A stretch of DNA of 64,000 nucleotides from contig OZ024747.1 of NCBI GenBank assembly GCA_964016885.1, positions 15,748,001-15,812,000 on the forward strand, written 5' to 3'. Source of the DNA: Eledone cirrhosa. Lineage: Eukaryota. The notes below the pieces were generated by a model. The model was not told the origin of the DNA. It saw nothing but the letters and a program-made list of their open reading frames with translations, and ran no database searches. Shown here piece after piece: positions 26,821 through 63,039 of the stretch (position 1 is the stretch's first letter; every line of letters begins with the position of its first letter). Both the position numbers and the translations under genes were made by a program.

Positions 26821-27152
26821 ATAATAATAAATATGAAGACTAAGATCCAAAGATTCTTTGCTTAAACTTTAATCTGTTATTTTAATAAATATATATATTC
26901 GCCTCATTCGGGAAACCTCTGGTAATGAGGTAATAATATTGTATTGATTTTATACATTAAATTTTGCTCTGACACTGACATAGAGCACTCTTCATTTCTA
27001 TGACCTTTTCTGTTTGTAACTGAAATTTCAATACTTATAAAGCTCCCAAGGGAATGATCGTAGCATATTCTACATCGTTATGAGATTGGCACCTTCCAGC
27101 CCTTTTTAAGTCGAGCACTCTCCAGTCATAGGATTTTAAACCAATACCGAAT

Positions 27153-29291
27153 ATGGACAAATACCCTTTGGACTACTCTGTAAAGAATATCGCAACACCT
27201 TCTAATACTCTCTACACGAAAATACTGATAGACAAAGTAGAGAAGGTTGTTAAAAGAATGAGATGGAAAGCTTTGATACTCGATGGTCAATTTAACACGG
27301 ATTCTACGTAACATTTTGACATCAAAACTCACAAATACCCGCAAAGAGTAAAAGATATGACCGCCTTTGAATTAGACCTAGTTAACCTTATCAACAACAT
27401 CAATTTTCGTAAGTACTCTAACCCCTTTCAATCCAAATTATCTAATGATATTTCTACTTTCAAATCTTCTAATAATAAGTTCATCTTCTCAGATAAAACT
27501 AAAAACCTATATGAAGTTAATAATAATTTACACGACCAACTATTAATAGATAATATCACCTCTAAATACCAAATAGCTAATATAAATACGTACCATAATA
27601 TAAATAAGGAAGCTAAAGAATTAGCTGTTTCTTTAAAAATAGATAATAAGACAGAAACACTTGCTAAACGTTCTGCGTATATCACCCTTAAAGATCATAA
27701 ACCCGACTTTATTAATCGCCCTAGTTGTAGATTAATCAACCCTGCTAAGACTGATATTGGTCTTGCCAGTAAAAAAATTTTAAATAAATTAAATACATAT
27801 ATTAGAAGTAAGTCTAAATTACTCCAATGGATAAATAGCTCTTCCGTAGTACATTGGTTTAATAATATTAAGAACAAAATCAGTTCTAGATTCACCCAAT
27901 TTGATATCGTAGATTTCTACCCATCTATTACTCAGACCCTTTTAGTGAAAGCTTTAAATTTCGCTAGAGGGTTCACTAATATCTCCGATATTGAAGAGGA
28001 TGTAATCTTGCATGCTAGGAACACTCTTCTTTTTAATGATAATGACACTTGGGTAAAAATATCTAACCCAGAGAACCCATTCGATGTCTCAATGGGCTCT
28101 TATGACAGTGCCGAGGTTTGTGATCTGGTCGGCCTATTCCTCTTACATACACTTAAAGAAAAATTTCCTAACCATATTTTTGGGCTTTATCGCGATGATG
28201 GTCTAATACTTTCCCATACCACCATAGGCCATAACTTAGATAGATTAAGGAAAGACTTAATAAAAACCTTTGCTAGTTTTAATCTTAAAATTACTATTGA
28301 TACTAACCTGTCCAACGTAGATTTCCTAGATATAAACTTAGATTTGCCTACTGCTTCTTATAAACCATACCATAAACCTAATGAAAACTTAAAATATATA
28401 AATAAAGGATCTTGCCATCCACCTATAGTTTTTAAAAACCTTATCCCTAATATTAGCCGTAGGATCTCCACCCTCTCTTCATCAGAAGCTATTTTCAATA
28501 AGGCATCCCCCTACTATAATATAGCCCTCCAAAATAGCGGCTTTAGCGAACCGATTAAATACATACCTAACTACACTAACTCTATTAAACATAAAAATAG
28601 GAAAAGAAAAATAATCTGGTTCACACCCCCCTACTCTCTAGCAGTTAAAACTAGTGTAGGCAAAAAATTCCTAGAACTCCTAGATAAACATTTCCCTAGA
28701 ACACATAGATACTATAAGATCTTTAACAGAAACTGTGTTAAAATTAGCTATTCCTGCGGTTCCCCTATTAAGTCCTATATCCTCAACAAAATTTCACCTA
28801 GAGAAAATCAAACTTGCTCCTGTAGAATCAAAAGTGAATGCCCATTACAAGGTAAATGCAACACCAAAGCCATTGTATATGCGGCTAATGTGACAACCAT
28901 CAGCAACAACCATCCAGTCACCAGTGAACGATATGTGGGTATGACGCAAGACAGATTCAAAACGCGTTATTACTCACATGTCGCATCCTTTCGACATCCA
29001 GAAAAAAGATTTACAACAGCTCTGGCTAGCAGAATCTGGGATTTGAAAGACCAAGGCATCCAATATAAACTAGATTGGTCAATTTTGAACCAATCTAAAA
29101 AATATGCTAGAGGAACAAGAAAATGCACGCTCTGCATAAACGAAAAATTTTGGATATTGCAAAATCTTAAATCACCAAAGACCTGCCTGAACACAAAGAC
29201 GGAAATTTTTACCAATTGCCCACACATGAAATCACACCTGCTTTCCAGCTCATATAAACTTAACACACTTTCAGATACTTATCCTCCATAA
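27153..29291 (+). pseudogene. PLE reverse transcriptase + C-terminal GIY-YIG endonuclease (712 codons with one in-frame TAA at 27309-27311; 644-aa open part starts at 27357)
   Basis: N-term YSVKNI..KRMRWKA; RT motifs RLINP, FDIVDFYPSI, MGSYDSAEVCDLVG, YRDDG; CSC-x5-CP-x4-C linker; IVY..YVG, FKTRY..H, CTLC..EK, LN GIY-YIG motifs. Confidence 0.9.
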
Positions 29292-29678
29292 ACTCTTATT
29301 ATTCTCTTTTTAATTACCCTTTCTGACTTACTTTCATTCTTATCCTTGTCAATAATTTCATTTATTTTCACTTTTATTTATTTTTACTTTACCCCCCCCC
29401 CCCCCTTTATTCTCCGATCCACTTCCTATTTTCTATTTTTTACTTCCCCTTCTTTTACTTCCCTTTTCCTCCACTAACTGATTATACTTGTCTTTTGTGT
29501 TTTTCAATCCAGATATATTTTTCATTTTTATTTTTATTTTATTTTTGCGCAGCCTATCTTACAATTTTATACTTGTACTTATTTATCCACGTTTCAATAT
29601 GGCTGAACGCCTTAATGTGTGTATACTTTTTATATATGTACATGAGTGACTACGTGTGTGCGCGCGCGTGCGTGTATG

Positions 29679-29720
<42 letters not shown>

Positions 29721-30498
29721 CGCGTATGTATGTGTGTGTGTATAGGTGTTTGTGTGTTGTGTATGTATATATTATGCGTATGTGTAGTTGTCTTTATATC
29801 CGTGTTTTTGACATTTCGTTTTTATGTTTTTGTTCCTTTTTTCTCCCCCCCCCCCCTTCCCTCTTTTGTTACTTACTCAGTTTCATACGTGGCCATGCAA
29901 ATAGGTTTATATGCGCTAGTATAAGTATGTGTGTGTGTGTGTGTGTATGTACGTATCGAACGTATGGAAGTGTAATTGCGCGTGTGTATATGCATAATTA
30001 TTTTTACATTTCTTTTGTGAGACACGCGTGTCTGTGTATGTATGTACCCCCCCCCTTTTTTTTGTTTTCTTTAATTTTTTCTTTCTATCTTTTCTTTCTA
30101 ATTTATCGTTACTATATTTTTATAAATATATCGAGACCGATACTTTTCTTTTAATTATTATACACTCTTTACCTCCTTTCTTTCCGCATCTAAGTGTCCA
30201 GGCGTTTTTATGCGCGCGACTTTATATTCTTATATTTACGATGTAACCATTTCTGTCTGTATAATACAGACATATAGATACACTTGCCCTAAATTTTTAT
30301 AATTACGCACACTTTCTAACTATACATTTACATGTGCACATATACATATATGCACATCTGTGAGCGTATATACATACACATACACACACCTAACTATTTT
30401 TCTTGATAGATTTTTATATATTTCAATTTCTATTTCATTTATCTATATATTTTTTTGATTTTCTTGATGTGTTTTTCTAAGTATTTGCCCATGTTTTA

Positions 30499-30578
30499 TA
30501 TTGCCTCGTCTGACGAACGAATGAAGTCGTTTATTTCGTATTCGCCTCATTCGGGAAACCTCTGGTAATGAGGTAATA
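30499..30578 (+). ncRNA. Type I hammerhead ribozyme in the PLE 3' terminal repeat
   Basis: TATTGCCTCGT-CTGACGA-A-CGAATGA..TCATTCG-G-GAAA-CC tct GG-TA-ATGAGGTAATA; 11-bp stem I, 7-bp stem II, GUA site at 30565-30567. Confidence 0.85.
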
Positions 30579-30831
30579 ATATTGTATTGATTTTATACAT
30601 TAAATTTTGCTCTGATACTGACATAGAGCACTCTTCATTTCTATGACCTTTTCTGTTTCTAACTGAAATTTCAATACTTATATATATATATATATATATA
30701 TATATACGCACAGAGCGAGAGAGAGTCATGTACGTGTATGTATGCATGTATATAATTCTAATTTCATATATATGTATATATATTGGAAAATGTGTGAAAT
30801 CCTTGGTACAATTAGGTATATTTAAAAGAAA

Positions 30832-33480: not shown

Positions 33481-34080
33481 CTTCCCTTCATTTATCTCAC
33501 ATGTATGGCATTTATAGTCCTTTCCAAACGAAATAAAATGTGAGAATGTTGATGGTAGTGAAGCTAGTGGTATTCTAGTGGTAGTTTAGCGTTGATGACA
33601 TAGCACCTCTTTGGTGTGGATGACTTTTCGTCGAATTAACTTTTTATGATTATCCTCAAACGTATTTTGCGACTTCTGTCAGAAGTATTTTCCGTAGAAT
33701 ACTTTCGCAAACATATCTTAATAGAACAGACCTTTTAGCAAAACAAATTTTCATAAAATTATTTTGTAAATGCATTTTTTTCATCGGGAATAGATTTAAT
33801 AGAACATTTTGGTTAAATATAATTTGGTAAAGTAGTTTTAATTACAACATAATTGAAGATGTATAGTATTTTCTTTAATGAAAAAGGAATAGAATTGCCA
33901 TCTAAATATATATACATTTAAAAGATCCATTAAAATGACTTTGATGATGAAGACGATGTCGTTGATATTAAAGATAATGATGATTATGGTGATGGTGATG
34001 GTGATGATGAAGATGATGATGATGATCCACACATTATCTTGAGAAGCATGGGAGGAGACGACACGTTGAGAATCAAAATT

Positions 34081-35415
34081 ATGAGATGGTGTTTAAGGCT
34101 ATGAGATGGTGTTTAAGGCTATGAGATGGCGTTCAAGGCTATCAGATGATGTTCAAGGCTATCAGATGGTGTTCAAGGCTATCAGATGGTGTTCAAAGCT
34201 ATGATATGGTGTTCATGGTTATGAGATGGTGTTCAAGGCTATGATATGGTGTTCAAAGCTATCAGATGGTGTTCAAGACTATCAGATGGTGTTCAAAGCT
34301 ATGAGATTGTCTTCATGGTTATGAGATGGTGTTCAAGGCTATGAGATGGTGTTCAAGGCTATGAGATGGTGTTCAAGGCTATCAGATGGTGTTCAAAGCT
34401 ATGAGATTGTCTTCATGGTTATCAGATGGTGTTCAAGGCTATGAGAATGTGTTAAAGGTTATCAGATGGTGTTCAAGGCTATCAGATGGTGTTCAAAGCT
34501 ATGAGATGGTGTTCATGGTTATGAGATGGTGTTCAAGGTTATGAGATGGTGTTCAAGGCTATCAGATGGTGTTCAAGGCTATCAGATGGTGTTCAAAGTT
34601 ATGAGATGGTGTTCAATCTATGAGATGGTGTTCATGGTTATGAGATGGTGTTCAAGGCTATGAGATGGTGTTCAAGGCTATCAGATGATGTTCAAAGCTA
34701 TGAGATGGTGTTCATGGTTATGAGATGGTGTTCAAGGCTATGAGAATGTGTTCAAGGCTATCAGATGGTGTTCAAGGCTACCAGATGGTGTTCAAAGCTA
34801 TGAGATGGTGTTCATGGTTATGAGATGGTGTTCATGGTTATGAAATGGTGTTCAAGGCTATCAGATTATGTTCAAAGCTATGAGATGGTGTTCATCGTTA
34901 TGAGATGGTGTTCAAGGCTATGAGAATGTGTTCAAGGCTATCAGATGGTGTTCAAAGCTATGAGATGGTGTTCATGGTTATGAGATGGTGTTCAAGGCTA
35001 TGAGAATGTGTTCAAGGCTATCAGATGGTGTTCAAGGCTACCAGATGGTGTTCAAAGCTATGAGATGGTGTTCATGGTTATGAGATGGTGTTCATGGTTA
35101 TGAGATGGTGTTCAAGGCTATCAGATTATGTTCAAAGCTATGAGATGGTGTTCATCGTTATGAGATGGTGTTCAAGGCTATGAGAATGTGTTCAAGGCTA
35201 TCAGATGGTGTTCAAGGCTATGAGAATGTGTTCAAGGCTATCAGATGGTGTTCAATGCTATCGGATGGTGTTCAAAGCTATGAGATGGTGTTCAAATCTA
35301 TGAGATGGTGTTCAAGGCTATGAGAGGGTGTTCAAGGCTATCAGATGGTGTTCAAGGCTATGAGAGGGTGTTCAAGGCTATGAGAATATGTTCAAGGCTA
35401 TGAGAGGGTGTTCAA
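34081..35415. repeat. 20-bp minisatellite, ~67 units, consensus AT(G/C)AGATGGTGTTCAAGGCT
   Basis: Head-to-tail units with no spacers. Confidence 0.97.
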
Positions 35416-40780: not shown

Positions 40781-40796
40781 GTTATATATATAGTTA

Positions 40797-40895
<99 letters not shown>

Positions 40896-40917
40896 CATAC
40901 TTACATACATACATACA

Positions 40918-41718
40918 ATCTCAAGTCCAGCCTCCAGCGCGCCTGGAGTTGGTCCATTGACTGGGATTTATACCTCAATGTCGATAAGTGTTGCCATATG
41001 GCAGTCGGTACACCTTATAACTCAGCTCTTACCTTCAACAGTGGCACTGCTCCTTTGAAGATCTTGGTCTGCTGGTCGACTCGTCCTTCAAACCATCAAA
41101 ACTTTGCATTCCAGCCGCAAACAAAGCAAGGAGCTCTCATTTTCTTAATCGACGCTCCTTTGTCAAACTCACTCCATAAATTGAATGAGACCGCACCTAG
41201 AATATGGCATCCAAGCATCAAACCCATACCTCATCCGGGATATCCATCACTTGGAGAGAGTTCAACGACTAGCGACTTCATTGGTACAGGGTCTTCATGA
41301 GCTGCCCTACGTAAGCCGGCACAGAAGCTGAACCTCTTCTCCTTGGAGCGTCGACGGCTACGAGGCGATCTCATTTTGGCTTACAATCTCTTCAATGGCC
41401 ATTACGATCTCCCTCAAGATCTCCTATTCACTCCGGCACGTGAAAGGGGTCTACGTGAACATGACAAAAAGCTGTTTCACCGCCGCTTTCGCCTAAATAG
41501 ACGGAAAAAAGCTGCTTTCTCGATCCACATCTCTGGTCCCTGGAATCGGCTCCCAGAAGAAGTAGTCAACGCACCAACCACGCAACAATTCAAGGTGAAA
41601 TTGGACCGGTGTTGGACCACTGTGTTTCCGACTGTGTAAATGTTGCCCCTCTCCCCTCCTTCCATGGCATCCGAAGCATCTATGTTTTATTTTCTGCCAA
41701 ATATATTAAATTGAATTG
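40918..41718 (+). mobile_element. CR1-type LINE 3' fragment (RT C-terminus and 3' UTR)
   Basis: LERRRLRGDLILAYNLFNG...RGLREHDKKL...WNRLPEEVVNAPT..FKVKLD; upstream frameshifted LERVQR motif. Confidence 0.8.
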
Positions 41719-44768: not shown

Positions 44769-45720
44769 AATTTATATATAAGTAGAACACTATTTTATCA
44801 TTCGACGCGTTTCTAATTTATTTCATCAATTTATCGATGTTGCTATACGTATTACATCATATAAACGCCACATTTTGTTACGAAGGTGAAAGAGAGATTT
44901 AAAAACGTCGGTTTCGGCGACAAATATCCTAGTTATTCCATCAACGGAATGGTTTGCTCGCGAAATTACCCTTCATGTAGCTGAATATTCTAAAGGCACG
45001 TCTACACTTTCAAAGACATTCATCATGGAACCGTGTGCGGTAAGGCTGACTCTTTGATTTACAGGTACAAACCATCCGACGGGCTTCCAAAAGTTTTCGT
45101 TCACTATTTCACTCTCCAGATCTTTTTTGATGCCATGCAGTAAGATGAAACAGATATTGTAAAGTTATATAGTGAAGTATATATGTGAAGAGAGATTCTG
45201 CAGAACAAATTGGTGTTGATGATGATGATACGAATAGCTTTACTGCAAGTAATGTTGACAAAAGTAATTATATAAGACTAAATATTAAAGATGATGTATG
45301 AAGACGAACGCACAATAAACAAGAGGTATTACACAGCTGTTTACTTTATCGCCTATAATAAGTATATTTAATCAATATCCTAGGTTAGGAAAACAATATC
45401 CATTGACTTTATAGGCCTTTATTACCGATGTGAGCTACATTTGTTCAATTTAACGATTTTCCATATGAACGCTCACTCAAAGATGCAAATAATGCAACTG
45501 GTTATATAGTTAGGTGACTAGATAAATAGAAAGTCACACACAGACACACACACACAGACACACACTCATATGTGTGTGTCTGTCTGAATGTGTGTGTTTA
45601 AATAGACATATATATGAATGTATATATAGTGTATTTTGCAATACACTATATGCTTAATTAAAAGCATTTTGAAGACCTTGGGCTATTGTTTTAGAGTAGT
45701 GACAGTCTCACTTACTTTAA

Positions 45721-45816
45721 ATTTTCAGCAAACAGGGGGAGATAAAGCTGACAGAGCTCTGTTTCGTACTATTTGGTACTTATCAAAGCTAAGTATTCCA
45801 CCTGTTTGCTGAAAAT
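45721..45816 (-). ncRNA. Type I hammerhead ribozyme (same family), core 45746-45790
   Basis: Core is the exact reverse complement of 46335-46379. Confidence 0.85.
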
Positions 45817-46038
45817 CATGAATGTTTGATTCTTATAGAATTCTAGTAATAATCAGGAACTGATTATACAGAGCGGTTGCCGGTCAAGCAGAAATTGAAA
45901 ATTAGAATTGGTGCTCTGAAATAGCGATATATATATGATTGTATATATAGTGTATTTTGCAATACACTGTATGCTTAATTAAAAGCATTTTGAAGACCTT
46001 ACGCTATTGTTTTAGAGTGACAGTCTCACTTACTTTAA

Positions 46039-46134
46039 ATTTTCAGCAAACAGAAGGTGATGAAGCTGACAGAGCTCTGTTTCATACTTTTTGGTACTTA
46101 TCAAAGCTAAGTACTCCACCCGTTTGCTGAAAAT
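46039..46134 (-). ncRNA. Type I hammerhead ribozyme (same family), core 46064-46108
   Basis: Stem II GTAC/GTAT (G-U wobble); 318 nt from the previous copy. Confidence 0.75.
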
Positions 46135-46308
46135 CATGAATTCTAGTAATAATCAGGAACTGATTATACAGAGCGGTTGCTGATCAATTCATATATATCG
46201 CTATTTCAGAGCACCAATTCTAATTTTCAATTTCTGCTTGACCGCCAACCGCTCTGTATAATCAGTTCCTGATTATTACTAGAATTCTATAAGAATGAAA
46301 CATTCCTA

Positions 46309-46404
46309 ATTTTCAGCAAACAGGTAGCGTACTTAGCTTTGATAAGTACCAAATAGTACGAAACAGAGCTCTGTCAGCTTTATTCCCCCCTGTTTGCTGA
46401 AAAT
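46309..46404 (+). ncRNA. Type I hammerhead ribozyme, U3-A8 core variant, with extended stem I
   Basis: ttttcagcaaacagg..AGCT-TTGATAA-GTAC caaata GTAC-GAAAC-AGAGCTCT-GTC-AGCT..cctgtttgctgaaaa; GUC at 46373-46375. Confidence 0.85.
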
Positions 46405-46608
46405 TTAAAGTAAGTGAGACTGACACTACTCTAAAACAATAGCGTAAGTAACCAGGTGCACCATAACGCACCAAAGTACTCGATACTGGGTAGTAGAGTG
46501 GGTAATAGGAAAAGAGTCAGGACCCGACGTTCAGATTTAGCTGTCGGAACGGCCGGAGCTCAGCCGGCGGGGTCCTAACACTGTTCATATATATATATAT
46601 ATACATAC

Positions 46609-46739: not shown

Positions 46740-46962
<223 letters not shown>

Positions 46963-47098
46963 TGGTGCTCTGAAATAGCGATATATATATGAATGTATAT
47001 ATAGTGTATTTTGTAATACACTGTATGCTTAATTAAAAGCATTTCGAAGATTTTACGCTATTGTTTTAGAGTAGTGACAGTCTCACTTACTTTAAATG

Positions 47099-47188
47099 TT
47101 CAGCAAACAAGGGGAGATAAAGCTGACAGAGCTCTGTTTCGTACTTTTTGCTACTTATCAAAGCTAAGTACTCCACTTGTTTGCTGAA
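47099..47188 (-). ncRNA. Type I hammerhead ribozyme (same family), core 47121-47165
   Basis: One mismatch in stem II; core otherwise intact. Confidence 0.7.
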
Positions 47189-47282
47189 AATTATGAATGT
47201 TTGATTCTTATAGAATTCTAGTAATAATTAGGAACTGATTATACAGAGCGGTTGCTATATATACAGAGAGAGAGAGGGGGAG

Positions 47283-51247: not shown

Positions 51248-51780
51248 AAGTTAAATAAAAGTCAAATGATTAAAATTTAGCTTCGTTTATTACTGCTATA
51301 TATATTTCAGTGACAGCCATCTTTGGCTGTGACCTCTTCAGGCAGTTTGAATTAGTATGGTATAGACAAGTACATATGTTGTTTAGGTGTATGATATTGT
51401 CAATACTCTGATATGCCCAGTTCCTTGCTGGGTTGTTAATTCACTGGGGAACTGGAGTCATATGACTCCAGTTCCCCAGTGAATTAACAACCCAGCAAGG
51501 AACTGGGCATATCAGAGTATTGACAATATCATACACCTAAACAACATATGTACTTGTCTATACCATACTAATTCAAACTGCCTGAAGAGGTCACAGCCAA
51601 AGATGGCTGTCACTGAAATATATATAGCAGTAATAAACGAAGCTAAATTTTAATCATTTGACTTTTATTTAACTTTATTTTACACTACTCCGGAGTAACC
51701 AAACCAACCTGCGCACTTCGTCGAGTGCTCCAGCCTGCATACTGAGGTGTTGGTATACAACCAACATAAACTCAAAATCT
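51241..51780. mobile_element. 442-bp perfect palindrome (51241-51682) plus ~100-bp tail; inverted Penelope-type terminal repeat
   Basis: Centre gagtcat|atgactc at 51461/51462; inserted in (TA)n. Confidence 0.88.
51577..51631 (+). ncRNA. Minimal type I hammerhead ribozyme (mirror copy at 51292-51346, minus strand)
   Basis: ACTGC-CTGAAGA-GGT c ACAGCCA aaga TGGCTGT c ACT-GAAA-TATATA-TA-GCAGT; palindromic stem III, AUA site. Confidence 0.82.
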
Positions 51781-52109
51781 ATATATATATATATATATAT
51801 ATCAGATCAAAAGATGGTTAAAAGAGTTCCATGTATTTTATTATGCGCATTTCAAAAACAAATATCATCATGCGATGACATTTGCGTTTTCGTCAGATAA
51901 AATAGGGAGACATAATATGAAGGTTAAAAAACACTTGTGAATAGTGCAGTTTTAAATCAACATATGAAAAGTAGTTTTAGATTGATGTGTGATATTTGGA
52001 GAAAAATATAGAGGGGGGGTGGAAAGGATGAAAAAGAAGAGGAGATGAGAGTAAAGAATGGAGGGGGAGGAGTATAATAAGGAAGGATGAGATAGGAGGA
52101 GAGAACAAT

Positions 52110-53369
52110 ATACGTAATCACTTTAACCAACATAACTTAAAAATTGAATTTGATAACAACATCAAACTAGCTAATTTCTTGGATATATTTCTGAATCTTG
52201 ACACTGACCATAAATCTTACGCTAACCATAAAAACAATGAGAATCTAAATTATGTTAATTTTAAATCTAACCACCCCACTAATATTAAGAATGCTATAGT
52301 TAGTAATATTGGAAAAAGAATATCCAACCTATCATCTAATAAAAACATCTTTGATGCTAACGCCAATTACTATAATAACGCGCTTTCTAAAGCCGGTTAT
52401 CCTGATAAAATCAAATATAGTAAAGAAACAAATTCTAGAAGATCTTACAGTAGAATGATTAATCATGATCATTCCAATAACTTTAATAAAAGACCTAGAT
52501 ACAAAAATATAATCTGGTATAATGCTTCTTTTTCCATCTCTATTAATATTCCTAAATTATTCTTTAGTGCCTTAAATAAATGCTTCCCTCCCTATAGTAA
52601 AATATTTAACAAACACACTATAAACTTTTCCTTATCGACCTCCTCCAACATCTCCAACATTATCTCTAAACACAACAATAAAATACTAAATACTAAATCT
52701 CTTCCTTCCAACACTAAATATCATAATAATAGTAATAGTACTCCCGACGTCATTGTTAACTCTAGGCTAATTTCTGCAAACCCAAATACAATGTCAAACG
52801 CAACTTCGTTAAATGTTCTTAATCCCAAACTAAATAAAAAAACTATTATTCCTATCGTAAATAACTTCTCCAATCCAATTCCTTCTATAGATAACTCTAG
52901 GTCACTTGTTAATAACTCTGTTAATTTCTCTAATCGCAATTGTAATTGCCCTGTTTAAAATAAATGTCCTCTCAACAACCATTGTCTTGAAAAAAACTTA
53001 ATCTGCGAATGTAAAGTTAGAACTGACACCAATTCCTTTACCTATTTTGGCTCCACTTCCACCTCCTTTAAAGCTCATCTTTATAATCATCATTCGTCTT
53101 TTAAATACCAACTTAAAAGAACCAACACGGCACTCTCAGAACTCATATGGTCCTTGAAAGACAAAAATATTAACTATAACATCTCTTGGAGGAAGGTTTG
53201 TTCTGCTTCTACATACTTGAATGCTTCTCTATCCAAGACATGTAATCTCTGTCTATGTGAGAAATTTACCATTATATCTCATTTAGATTCTATAATAAAT
53301 AGACGCACTGACTTGTTTTCTCTCTGCTTGCATAATTTCCACAGAACATTCCATAAAGTATACAGCTAA
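52110..53369 (+). pseudogene. 5'-truncated Penelope-like (Naiad-type) RT thumb + GIY-YIG, one in-frame TAA at 52956-52958
   Basis: NFLDIFLNL, YVNFKSNHP, RISNLSS, NIIWYN, CNC..KCPL..C, YFGST..FK, LSELIWSLKD, CNLCLCEK; homologous to 28250-29291. Confidence 0.85.
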
Positions 53370-54221
53370 TATCTAATACTTTACCAATTTAAAATCCTTT
53401 TTCTCAAAGGCAAATATATATATACATATATATTTCTTTAAAAATATACCCATCTTTCTACCTTATTTCAATGTTATTTATTATGCATTATATAATACTA
53501 GTTACTCATTCTATATCACTCCTATTTATCACTTCCCTTTCTTTCTTTTTTCCTTTTTTCTTTTAATTTCTAACCTCTAATCTGTACCTTTTCTTCCTAG
53601 ATACTTCTCAATTCTCATTATTACTCCCCACAATATATCCATTCTTCCTTCTTCCATCCTATCACTGGCCATAAAATTTACTATTACCCTTTTAAATACT
53701 TTATAATATCACATTGAAAAATCCGTCGTAAACATAAACATTTTTTTGACGTTAGATTATACATCCTCAATTCATTATTTTTTTCTCCCTTTCATGCTCA
53801 TCTAACTTCTACATATTACACATATTCATCCTCTCTTCTACTTCATTTCACAATCTTTCCTTAATTACATTACTATTGTTATATATATATATATTTTTTT
53901 AATAATACATATCAACAATTTCTTTCCATCGCACATATTATTGAACGCTTCAATATTCAAACCTTAACATAATATTATTCTTAATACATATTAACAATTT
54001 CTTTTCATCGCACATATTATTAAACCCTTCAATATACAAACCTTAATTTAACATTATTCTTAAAATTTTCTCTTCGTTAATTTTCAAATTCTTTTAATTT
54101 ATATATTATCTTCCAACGGTTTGATCTTATATATTATATATACTCCCGTCCTACAAACTGTAGAGTGCTACTTATCCGATATCTGCATTGCTTTATTGTA
54201 CTACAAATAAAACTCACCTCC

Positions 54222-57401: not shown

Positions 57402-57826
57402 GTAGCATAAGGTCTTCAAAACGCTTTTAATTAAGCATAAAGTGTATTGCAAAATGCATTATATATACATTCATATATATATGGCTATTTCAGAGCACCA
57501 ATTCTAATTTTTAATTTCTGCATGACCGGCAACCGCTCTGTATAATCAGTTCCTGATTATTTACTAGAATTCTATAAGAACCAAACATCCGTGATTTCAG
57601 CAGACGGGGGGAGTAGTTGGCTTTGATAAGCATCAATAAATGCAGAAACAGGGCCTTGTCGTCTTTATCTCCCCCTTTTTGCTGAGATTAGAGTAAGTGA
57701 GTCTGTCACTACTCTGGAACAATAGCATAAGGTTTTCAAAATGCTTTTAATTAAGCATAAAGTGTATTGCAAAATGCACTATATACACATTCATATATAT
57801 ATGGCTATTTCAGAGCACCAATTCTA

Positions 57827-57829
<3 letters not shown>
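57402..57829 (+). mobile_element. 1.3 tandem copies (period 320) of the ~318-bp hammerhead family; HHR core 57619-57664
   Basis: GGCT-TTGATAA-GCAT caataa ATGC-A-GAAAC-AGGGCCTT-GTC. Confidence 0.8.
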
Positions 57830-57890
<61 letters not shown>

Positions 57891-62434: not shown

Positions 62435-62509
62435 GCATATATATATATATACATGCATATATATATACATGCATATATATGTGTGTATATATATATTTAT
62501 ATATAAATA

Positions 62510-62949
62510 TAAATGTATGTATAGAATATTTGGCAATATACCGTATGTTTAATTAAAACATATAGAAGACCATACGCTATCAGTGTTAAAGTAGTGACTA
62601 TGTCACTTACTTCAGTTCAGCGAAAGAAGGGAGAGAAGTTGACAGCCTGTTTCACGCTGGTTGGCGTTCATCAGAGCCACGCACTCCCCTGCTTCCGCCG
62701 AAAATTATAGTAGTTGGATTCTTATAGAATTCCAGTAATAAACAGGAACTGATTATATAGAGCGATTTCCGGTCCAGCAAAAAGTGGGTATTATGATTGG
62801 TGCTCTGAAATAGTGATGTAACCATGAATGTATGTATAGTATATTTGGCAATATACCGAATGTTTAATTAAAAACATTTAGAAGACCATACGCTACCAGT
62901 TTTAAAGTAGTGACTGTGTCACTTGCTTCTTTTCGCCGAAAGAAGGGAA
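62510..62949 (-). mobile_element. 1.4 tandem copies (period ~315) of a diverged subfamily of the ~318-bp hammerhead family
   Basis: Shared blocks gattcttatagaattc.agtaataa.caggaactgattata.agagcg and ttggtgctctgaaatag. Confidence 0.75.
62637..62678 (-). ncRNA. Type I hammerhead ribozyme, canonical C3-G8 core
   Basis: GGCT-CTGATGA-ACGC caacca GCGT-GAAAC-AG g CT-GTC-AACT; one mismatch in proximal stem I. Confidence 0.75.
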
Positions 62950-63039
62950 GTAAACGGAAACTGCAAAGCAAACCACAGAGAAGGATGAAGAAATATATTA
63001 GTTTAACACTAGGTATAGTAGGAAATGGGTTTCCATTAA

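Follow-up and report, generated by a model that had tools for sequence, protein, structure and literature searches.

Hammerhead Motifs in the Window

The 64,000-nt stretch of Eledone cirrhosa DNA analyzed here (the window) contains six homologous copies of a hammerhead motif, found with a descriptor scan and blastn. As in the original prediction, which the descriptor scan bore out on these points, five have the core TTGATAA, with position 3 at 46339 (+), 45786 (-), 46104 (-), 47161 (-), and 57623 (+); one has CTGATGA (62674–62668, - strand); and stem II varies among them, being GTAC/GTAC in two copies and GTAC/GTAT, GTAG/GTAC, GCAT/ATGC, or ACGC/GCGT in the others. The GTAC/GTAT and GTAG/GTAC stems are GTAC/GTAC after single-base decay. 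Loop II fits CAANNA in all six.

The copy at 46335–46379 (+ strand; copy A) reads as a type I hammerhead motif with a U3-A8 core. Its parts come in the order stem I (AGCT), core, 4-bp stem II, closing the loop CAAATA, then GAAA, a 12-nt palindromic stem III, GUC, and stem I again (AGCT); the predicted cut is after GUC, between 46375 and 46376. Stem I has a UAC bulge 9 to 7 nt before position 3 (46330–46332, +), at the register where the Rfam HH9 consensus also has UAC. In each of the nine lineages tabulated U predominates at -9, and by analogy the bulge is likely the partner of loop II in a predicted tertiary contact. The ribozyme is closed by a long hairpin (46311–46404, +), an outer stem suggested by folding and by paired changes, since it covaries between lineages; the 99-nt region around copy A has a folding z of -9.3.

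The copies are arranged in one cluster and three separate insertions. Unit A (46187–46448, +), carrying the copy just described, is 5′-truncated and inverted, and lies head-to-head with unit C (45989–46186, -; hammerhead 46108–46064), itself 5′-truncated; C is in tandem with unit B (45600–46006, -; hammerhead 45790–45746), which is full length with a 3′ tail. Both B and C have U3-A8 cores, as do insertion D (46960–47255, -; hammerhead 47165–47121) and insertion E (57402–57831, +; hammerhead 57619–57664), which belongs to the GCAT/ATGC lineage; the 3′ ends of D and E enter (AT)n. Insertion F (62501–62954, -; hammerhead 62678–62637) belongs to an older, C3-G8 lineage. There are stem I mismatches in E and one in F, including in each a private mismatch adjoining the cut site, and E also has an additional A ahead of GAAA, so that these two copies are probably damaged as ribozymes.

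The best Rfam match is Hammerhead_HH9 (RF02275, clan CL00010), which has a like kind of loop II and the same UAC bulge register. Copy A scores 17.3 bits and the C3-G8 copy 20.2 bits where the gathering score is 52, so that the two forms scanned from the window are well short of family membership, and Rfam misses the two core forms alike. An Rfam scan of the whole window had no hammerhead among the 150 matches listed, of 191; microsatellite matches to miRNA models dominate, and microsatellites likewise dominate a repeat search of the whole window.

The Repeat Unit and Its Insertions

The motif lies within a repeat whose unit length, taken from core-to-core spacing in direct tandem pairs, is 301–322 nt. 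In the 3.0-Gb E. cirrhosa genome, two anchors placed outside the ribozyme have 2,332 and 2,836 matches, and their controls none. Arrays of up to six units are seen, and one six-unit array is identical over 175 nt. No frame of 110 codons was found over the units, except by microsatellite read-through. Two monomers folded as circles gave z = -7.4 and -4.9, with the antisense strands folding equally well. By the features tested (size, tandems, copy number, non-coding sequence, and self-paired fold), the unit would be classed as a non-LTR retrozyme.

Insertions are 5′-truncated partial tandems. At 59 of 118 loci a 5′ copy is joined head-to-head in inverted orientation; of 155 3′ ends, 111 meet (AT)n, against a background of 10%, a count inflated by one of the two preferred 3′ end points lying in the unit's own AT-rich stretch. 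The insertion ends lie in microsatellites, which would hide target-site duplications. In window copies B and D the 3′ ends are ~140–165 nt beyond the cut site, and the copies retain an intact cut site, an arrangement that would fit a circular or uncut multimeric template.

The 5′ truncation, partial tandems, inverted 5′ copy, and microsatellite target together make up a Penelope-type insertion pattern, and the same architecture has been described for insertions of Penelope-like elements (PLEs; PMC8557442). The unit might then be the pseudo-LTR (pLTR) of an autonomous PLE, with most copies being its 5′-truncated ends: besides the similar insertion architecture, hammerheads are carried by PLE pLTRs (PMC4209133), pLTRs have been suggested as a possible source of retrozymes (bioRxiv 10.64898/2026.07.22.740005), and PLE-like protein matches are found at 20 of 238 loci. 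Those 20 matches, however, are at varied positions and on both strands, giving no fixed RT frame near the units; the 88 free 5′ flanks gave only six pairwise matches, and no common upstream element; and what stands upstream of a unit is another unit. At the loci covered, the repeat was not found flanking a frame with RT and GIY-YIG parts, as a pLTR would, and we regard this origin as very unlikely.

Hammerhead Features Across the Family

The family keeps the core Y3 U4 G5 A6 N7 R8 A9, G12 A13 A14 A15.1, and U16.1 H17, with a 3-8 pair, three helices of which stem I is open-ended, and an NUH site; the predicted fold is that of a type I hammerhead. The cleavage-site triplet is GUC, GUU, or GUA in all 18 copies examined. 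Helix III is a full palindrome in nine of these, which would be consistent with cleavage as dimers, as type I motifs are described to undergo (PMC4209133, PMC6155905). Over nine lineages, the 10.1-11.1 pair is G-C in four, A-U in one, U.U in three, and A.A in one; G10.1-C11.1, typical of canonical hammerheads, is found in the lineage of copy A and three sister lineages.

By nearest-neighbor folding, each of the 18 copies has its predicted minimum 2.9–14 kcal/mol below the hammerhead fold. Such models leave out tertiary contacts. In most family I copies, a predicted alternative helix joins positions 3–5 to stem III. This helix (stem I and positions 3–5 with stem III; 46335–46367 in the window) is retained in several lineages of these copies despite letter changes. 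It is a possible off-state, and a fold blocked in this way could protect circles.

Positions 3 and 8 in the Genome

C3-G8 forms a Watson-Crick pair in the active hammerhead fold (PMC3884650), as the original prediction assumed, and natural covariation from C3-G8 to U3-A8, known to be active in vitro, was described by Perreault et al. (2011; PMC3088659). A genome pattern left free at both positions gave 2,089 matches (reversed control, 0), comprising 1,335 U3-A8 (by subtraction), 704 C3-G8, 23 U3-G8, and 27 C3-A8. Only 50 are therefore mismatched, where about 950 would be expected under independence (our own arithmetic). The proposal that the two positions change together thus holds for 2,039 of 2,089 matches, with the reservation that these paired copies are related by descent and not independent. 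The mismatched copies have a C3-G8 stem II background in 14 of the 23 U3-G8 and 20 of the 27 C3-A8 cases, and a U3-A8 one in the remainder; in a tree of 131 copies (187 rows, minus 10 without a core and 46 short rows) they are scattered. They are decay, not lineages. Purines at position 3 occur in 77 matches, of which one is paired, and form no lineage.

Since such patterns fix the core, a sample anchored outside it was also drawn from a single contig, where 110 places gave 140 units, reduced to 132 by leaving out eight without a ribozyme. It includes 83 U3-A8, 40 C3-G8, and nine mismatched units (123 of 132 paired), and U3-A8 is found at 55 of 102 loci. Each of U4, G5, A6, A9, G12, A13, and A14 is kept in 125–130 of the 132. 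A distant related family, with 59 matches, has 53 U3-A8, four C3-G8, and two mismatched. The expectation that CUGANGA searches would miss most copies is roughly right, in that about half to two thirds of the family escapes such descriptors, but U3-A8 hammerhead descriptors have been in use since 2011–2014 (PMC3088659, PMC4209133).

Positions 3 and 8 are changed in about 2–3% of cases in C3-G8 backgrounds and <1% in U3-A8 backgrounds, roughly half as often as other sites are (4.2% and 0.9–1.3%, respectively); the samples differ and pattern matches favor intact copies, and selection on single genomic copies is not shown by these figures.

Two other features vary with the core. The original prediction gave loop II as always a 6-nt CAANNA, which is true of the window but not of the genome, where 1,200 matches have a 5-nt loop; 95 of the first 100 of these are C3-G8, and 5-nt loops accompany that core almost exclusively. 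Position 7, in the sample anchored outside the core, is U in 69 of 70 U3-A8 units, and U, G, and A in 17, 10, and 1 of the C3-G8 units. These associations of loop length and position 7 with core type may be due to descent or epistasis.

Paired Changes in Stem II

The stem II sequences can be placed in a ladder, ACGC/GCGT to ACAC/GTGT to ATAC/GTAT to GTAC/GTAC, with one double change per step and the 3-8 switch coming after. Between the sister lineages with GTAC/GTAC and GCAC/GTGC, just two of 296 columns differ in their majority letters, and these are the two sides of one stem II pair (permutation p = 3.5e-4). In seven of eight lineage comparisons there is an excess of complete double changes over random placement (p = 2e-4 to 0.03); the eighth (ACGC vs. 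TCGC) has no double change, and pair 10.1-11.1 is broken without compensation. Among 12 natural copies, both sides have changed in 14 of 22 pairs, and 97.3% of 264 cells are paired, compared to 34–47% with slid partners, although these pair counts are inflated by related rows, by lineage names based on stem II, and by a structure drawn from these same sequences.

Double changes might also appear without selection, if hairpin arms are mended by template switching as DNA replicates or during reverse transcription, as has been described for RNA genes (bioRxiv 10.1101/2021.04.15.439925); the long, near-perfect inverted repeats of this element would lend themselves to it. One argument against this is that 3-8 is a lone pair, not part of inverted-repeat arms. 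The unpaired core is conserved too, and G.U intermediates do occur (GCAT/GTGC, in three sampled copies). Some of the stem changes could come from template switching, but it does not explain the core, and is highly improbable as the source of the covariation.

How Often the Pair Switched

As the copies are not independent, switches of the 3-8 pair were counted instead on trees, with the ribozyme columns removed; these used 51, 34, and 44 chosen copies, not all copies. There is a second U3-A8 lineage, with stem II ACGC/GCGA (164 matches; control, 1), and the U3-A8 lineages differ from one another throughout stems I–III, which speaks against their having exchanged the core by recombination. Early trees, which were without the intermediate C3-G8 lineages with a 5-nt loop, were compatible with U3-A8 having arisen just once in the family (p-AU 0.585 and 0.531). 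The sample anchored outside the ribozyme revealed these lineages, which have ACAC/GTGT, ATAC/GTAT, or GTAC/GTAC stems. In the tree that includes them (44 rows), the ACGC/GCGA U3-A8 lineage falls inside a C3-G8 clade (support 99/98) and the main U3-A8 clade inside an ATAC/GTAC C3-G8 grade (support 100/100 and 100/99), and the test rejects a single origin at p-AU 8.5e-7. With a C3-G8 outgroup, both within-family switches run from C-G to U-A. Joining all the U3-A8 rows of this family and the related family is likewise rejected (p-AU 1e-59, 34 rows). With one origin rejected both within the family and across to its relative, pair 3-8 has switched on at least three separate branches.

The branch of one of these switches has only 13 differences over 292 columns and carries another double change too; the main lineage's switch falls on a branch where 33 of 276 columns differ. 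One switch to U3-A8 arose on A.A at 10.1-11.1 (about 160 matches). An order in which U3-A8 came first and G10.1-C11.1 later was considered and dropped, the main lineage having acquired G10.1-C11.1 first.

Linkage by descent alone, in which two masters chanced to differ at positions 3 and 8 and copy number multiplied this one event, does hold for the six window copies taken by themselves (one branch, one event), and agrees with the non-independence of the 2,039 paired copies and with the early trees, which required one switch, but it is largely refuted by the rejection of a single origin, with intermediates and across families, and by the two double changes sharing the 13-difference branch, and we give it very little credence.

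A Possible Amplification Cycle

We consider it highly probable that the locus holds a type I hammerhead in a ~320-nt non-coding repeat, likely a non-autonomous retrozyme, and that its paired covariation likely arose because self-cleaving masters alone were copied onward. In such a cycle, a multi-unit transcript would cleave itself at GUC, GUU, or GUA, and the cleaved monomer would circularize. The RT and GIY-YIG nuclease of a Penelope-like element would then prime at (AT)n, copying over more than one turn, and the inserted copies would decay neutrally. Pair 3-8 changed from C-G to U-A on three branches or more, and single mismatches are seen only as decay after insertion. The Penelope-like element at 26900–30660 (described below) is a candidate helper; no sequence link was found between the unit and the window's Penelope-like elements.

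The paired changes along the family tree likely reflect selection for self-cleavage. The prediction that ribozyme structure was under selection during amplification is upheld on three counts: no lineage with a 3-8 mismatch has been amplified, three or more switches of the pair are counted, and double changes of paired bases separate sister lineages well beyond chance expectation.

A bolder version of selection for self-cleavage would make the family a natural record of a catalytic pair crossing a fitness valley, with the helix III that is palindromic in many lineages letting an intact neighbor cleave a broken-core unit until a second change restored the pair. Single mutants could ride along if cleaved as double hammerheads or in trans by a neighbor. 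We find this unlikely.

Relationship to Known Systems

Both the element class and the U3-A8 core variant are already published, and the present finding extends this picture rather than changing it. The closest likeness is to the metazoan non-LTR retrozymes of coral, mussel, and axolotl (Cervera and De la Peña, 2020; PMC7229834), in which, too, a non-coding repeat of 150–450 nt has a single type I hammerhead per unit, forms tandem multimers, runs to thousands of copies, and is predicted to have a self-paired fold; the axolotl HHR_Amex2 also has U.U at the base of helix II, as do some lineages here. In comparison, the E. cirrhosa family has U3-A8 as its commoner core, and it inserts as short arrays that have inverted 5′ copies and end in (AT)n. 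Its anatomy also fits the non-LTR retrozymes of bioRxiv 10.64898/2026.07.22.740005.

High-copy natural U3-A8 hammerheads alongside C3-G8 in one genome are shared with Schistosoma mansoni, where there are about 1,300 U3-A8 matches (Cervera and De la Peña, 2014; PMC4209133). The S. mansoni motifs are described as minimal, with a long helix II, and tied to PLEs, whereas in those here helix II is 4 bp with a loop of CAANNA or CAACA, helix III is a real helix, and the unit is non-coding. Perreault et al. (PMC3088659), in the passages covered, give their variants as scattered examples and neither draw up a lineage tree nor count independent switches. In the cave cricket Dolichopoda, compensatory stem changes together with a conserved core have similarly been taken as evidence of selection on a hammerhead in a repeat family, the pDo500 satellite (PMC2837043); its abstract notes few core substitutions and mentions no 3-8 switch. 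No report on this family, and no paper counting repeated 3-8 switches on a retrozyme tree, was found in the incomplete body of literature covered.

On the reading preferred here, phylogeny within one genome confirms selection, in a mobile element, on the 3-8 pair known from crystal structures. The ordered natural variants (the stem II ladder, 5- vs. 6-nt loops, weak 10.1-11.1 pairs, and the two cores) could be used to study how core exchanges depend on context.

Other Elements in the Window and Genome

The Penelope-like element at 26900–30660 (+) has a 659-codon open frame (27312–29291) with an RT-type YRDD motif plus a GIY-YIG-like part at its C terminus, terminal repeats in direct orientation, a motif resembling a hammerhead around 30510–30575, and (AT)n on both sides. 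The Atlas neighbors of this frame have GIY-YIG and HTH_animal families; Pfam and PDB sequence searches with the window's Penelope-like frames gave no matches. A second, broken Penelope-like element at 51280–53370 is 36% identical to the first, and ahead of it stand two minimal hammerhead motifs in inverted arrangement (CTGAAGA at 51582, +, and 51341, -) with a long stem II and a palindromic AT stem III. At 1190–2410 (+) there is a tandem repeat of about 530 bp ending in (AT)n, with three hammerhead-like motifs that have a long stem II, two of them with CTGATGA (1219 and 2277); this is probably another retrozyme or pLTR family.

Elsewhere in the genome, six loci (L163, L164, L167–L169, and L194) have long satellite arrays of 464–470 bp with a distantly related C3-G8 type I hammerhead, whose stem II is GATG/CATC or GTTG/CAAC. 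Loci L174, L195–L197, L199–L201, L038, L171, and L198 hold additional related families whose stem II has U.U or C.A at its base (TAGC/GCTT, CAGC/GCTA, or TTTC/GAAT).

The window also has an exon-like frame at 2819–3154 (-) with a GDSGGG motif, which we take to be the active site of a trypsin-family serine protease; broken frames at 40794–41639 (+) with a likely resemblance to a LINE reverse transcriptase at its 3′ end; and a 20-bp minisatellite array at 33959–35000.
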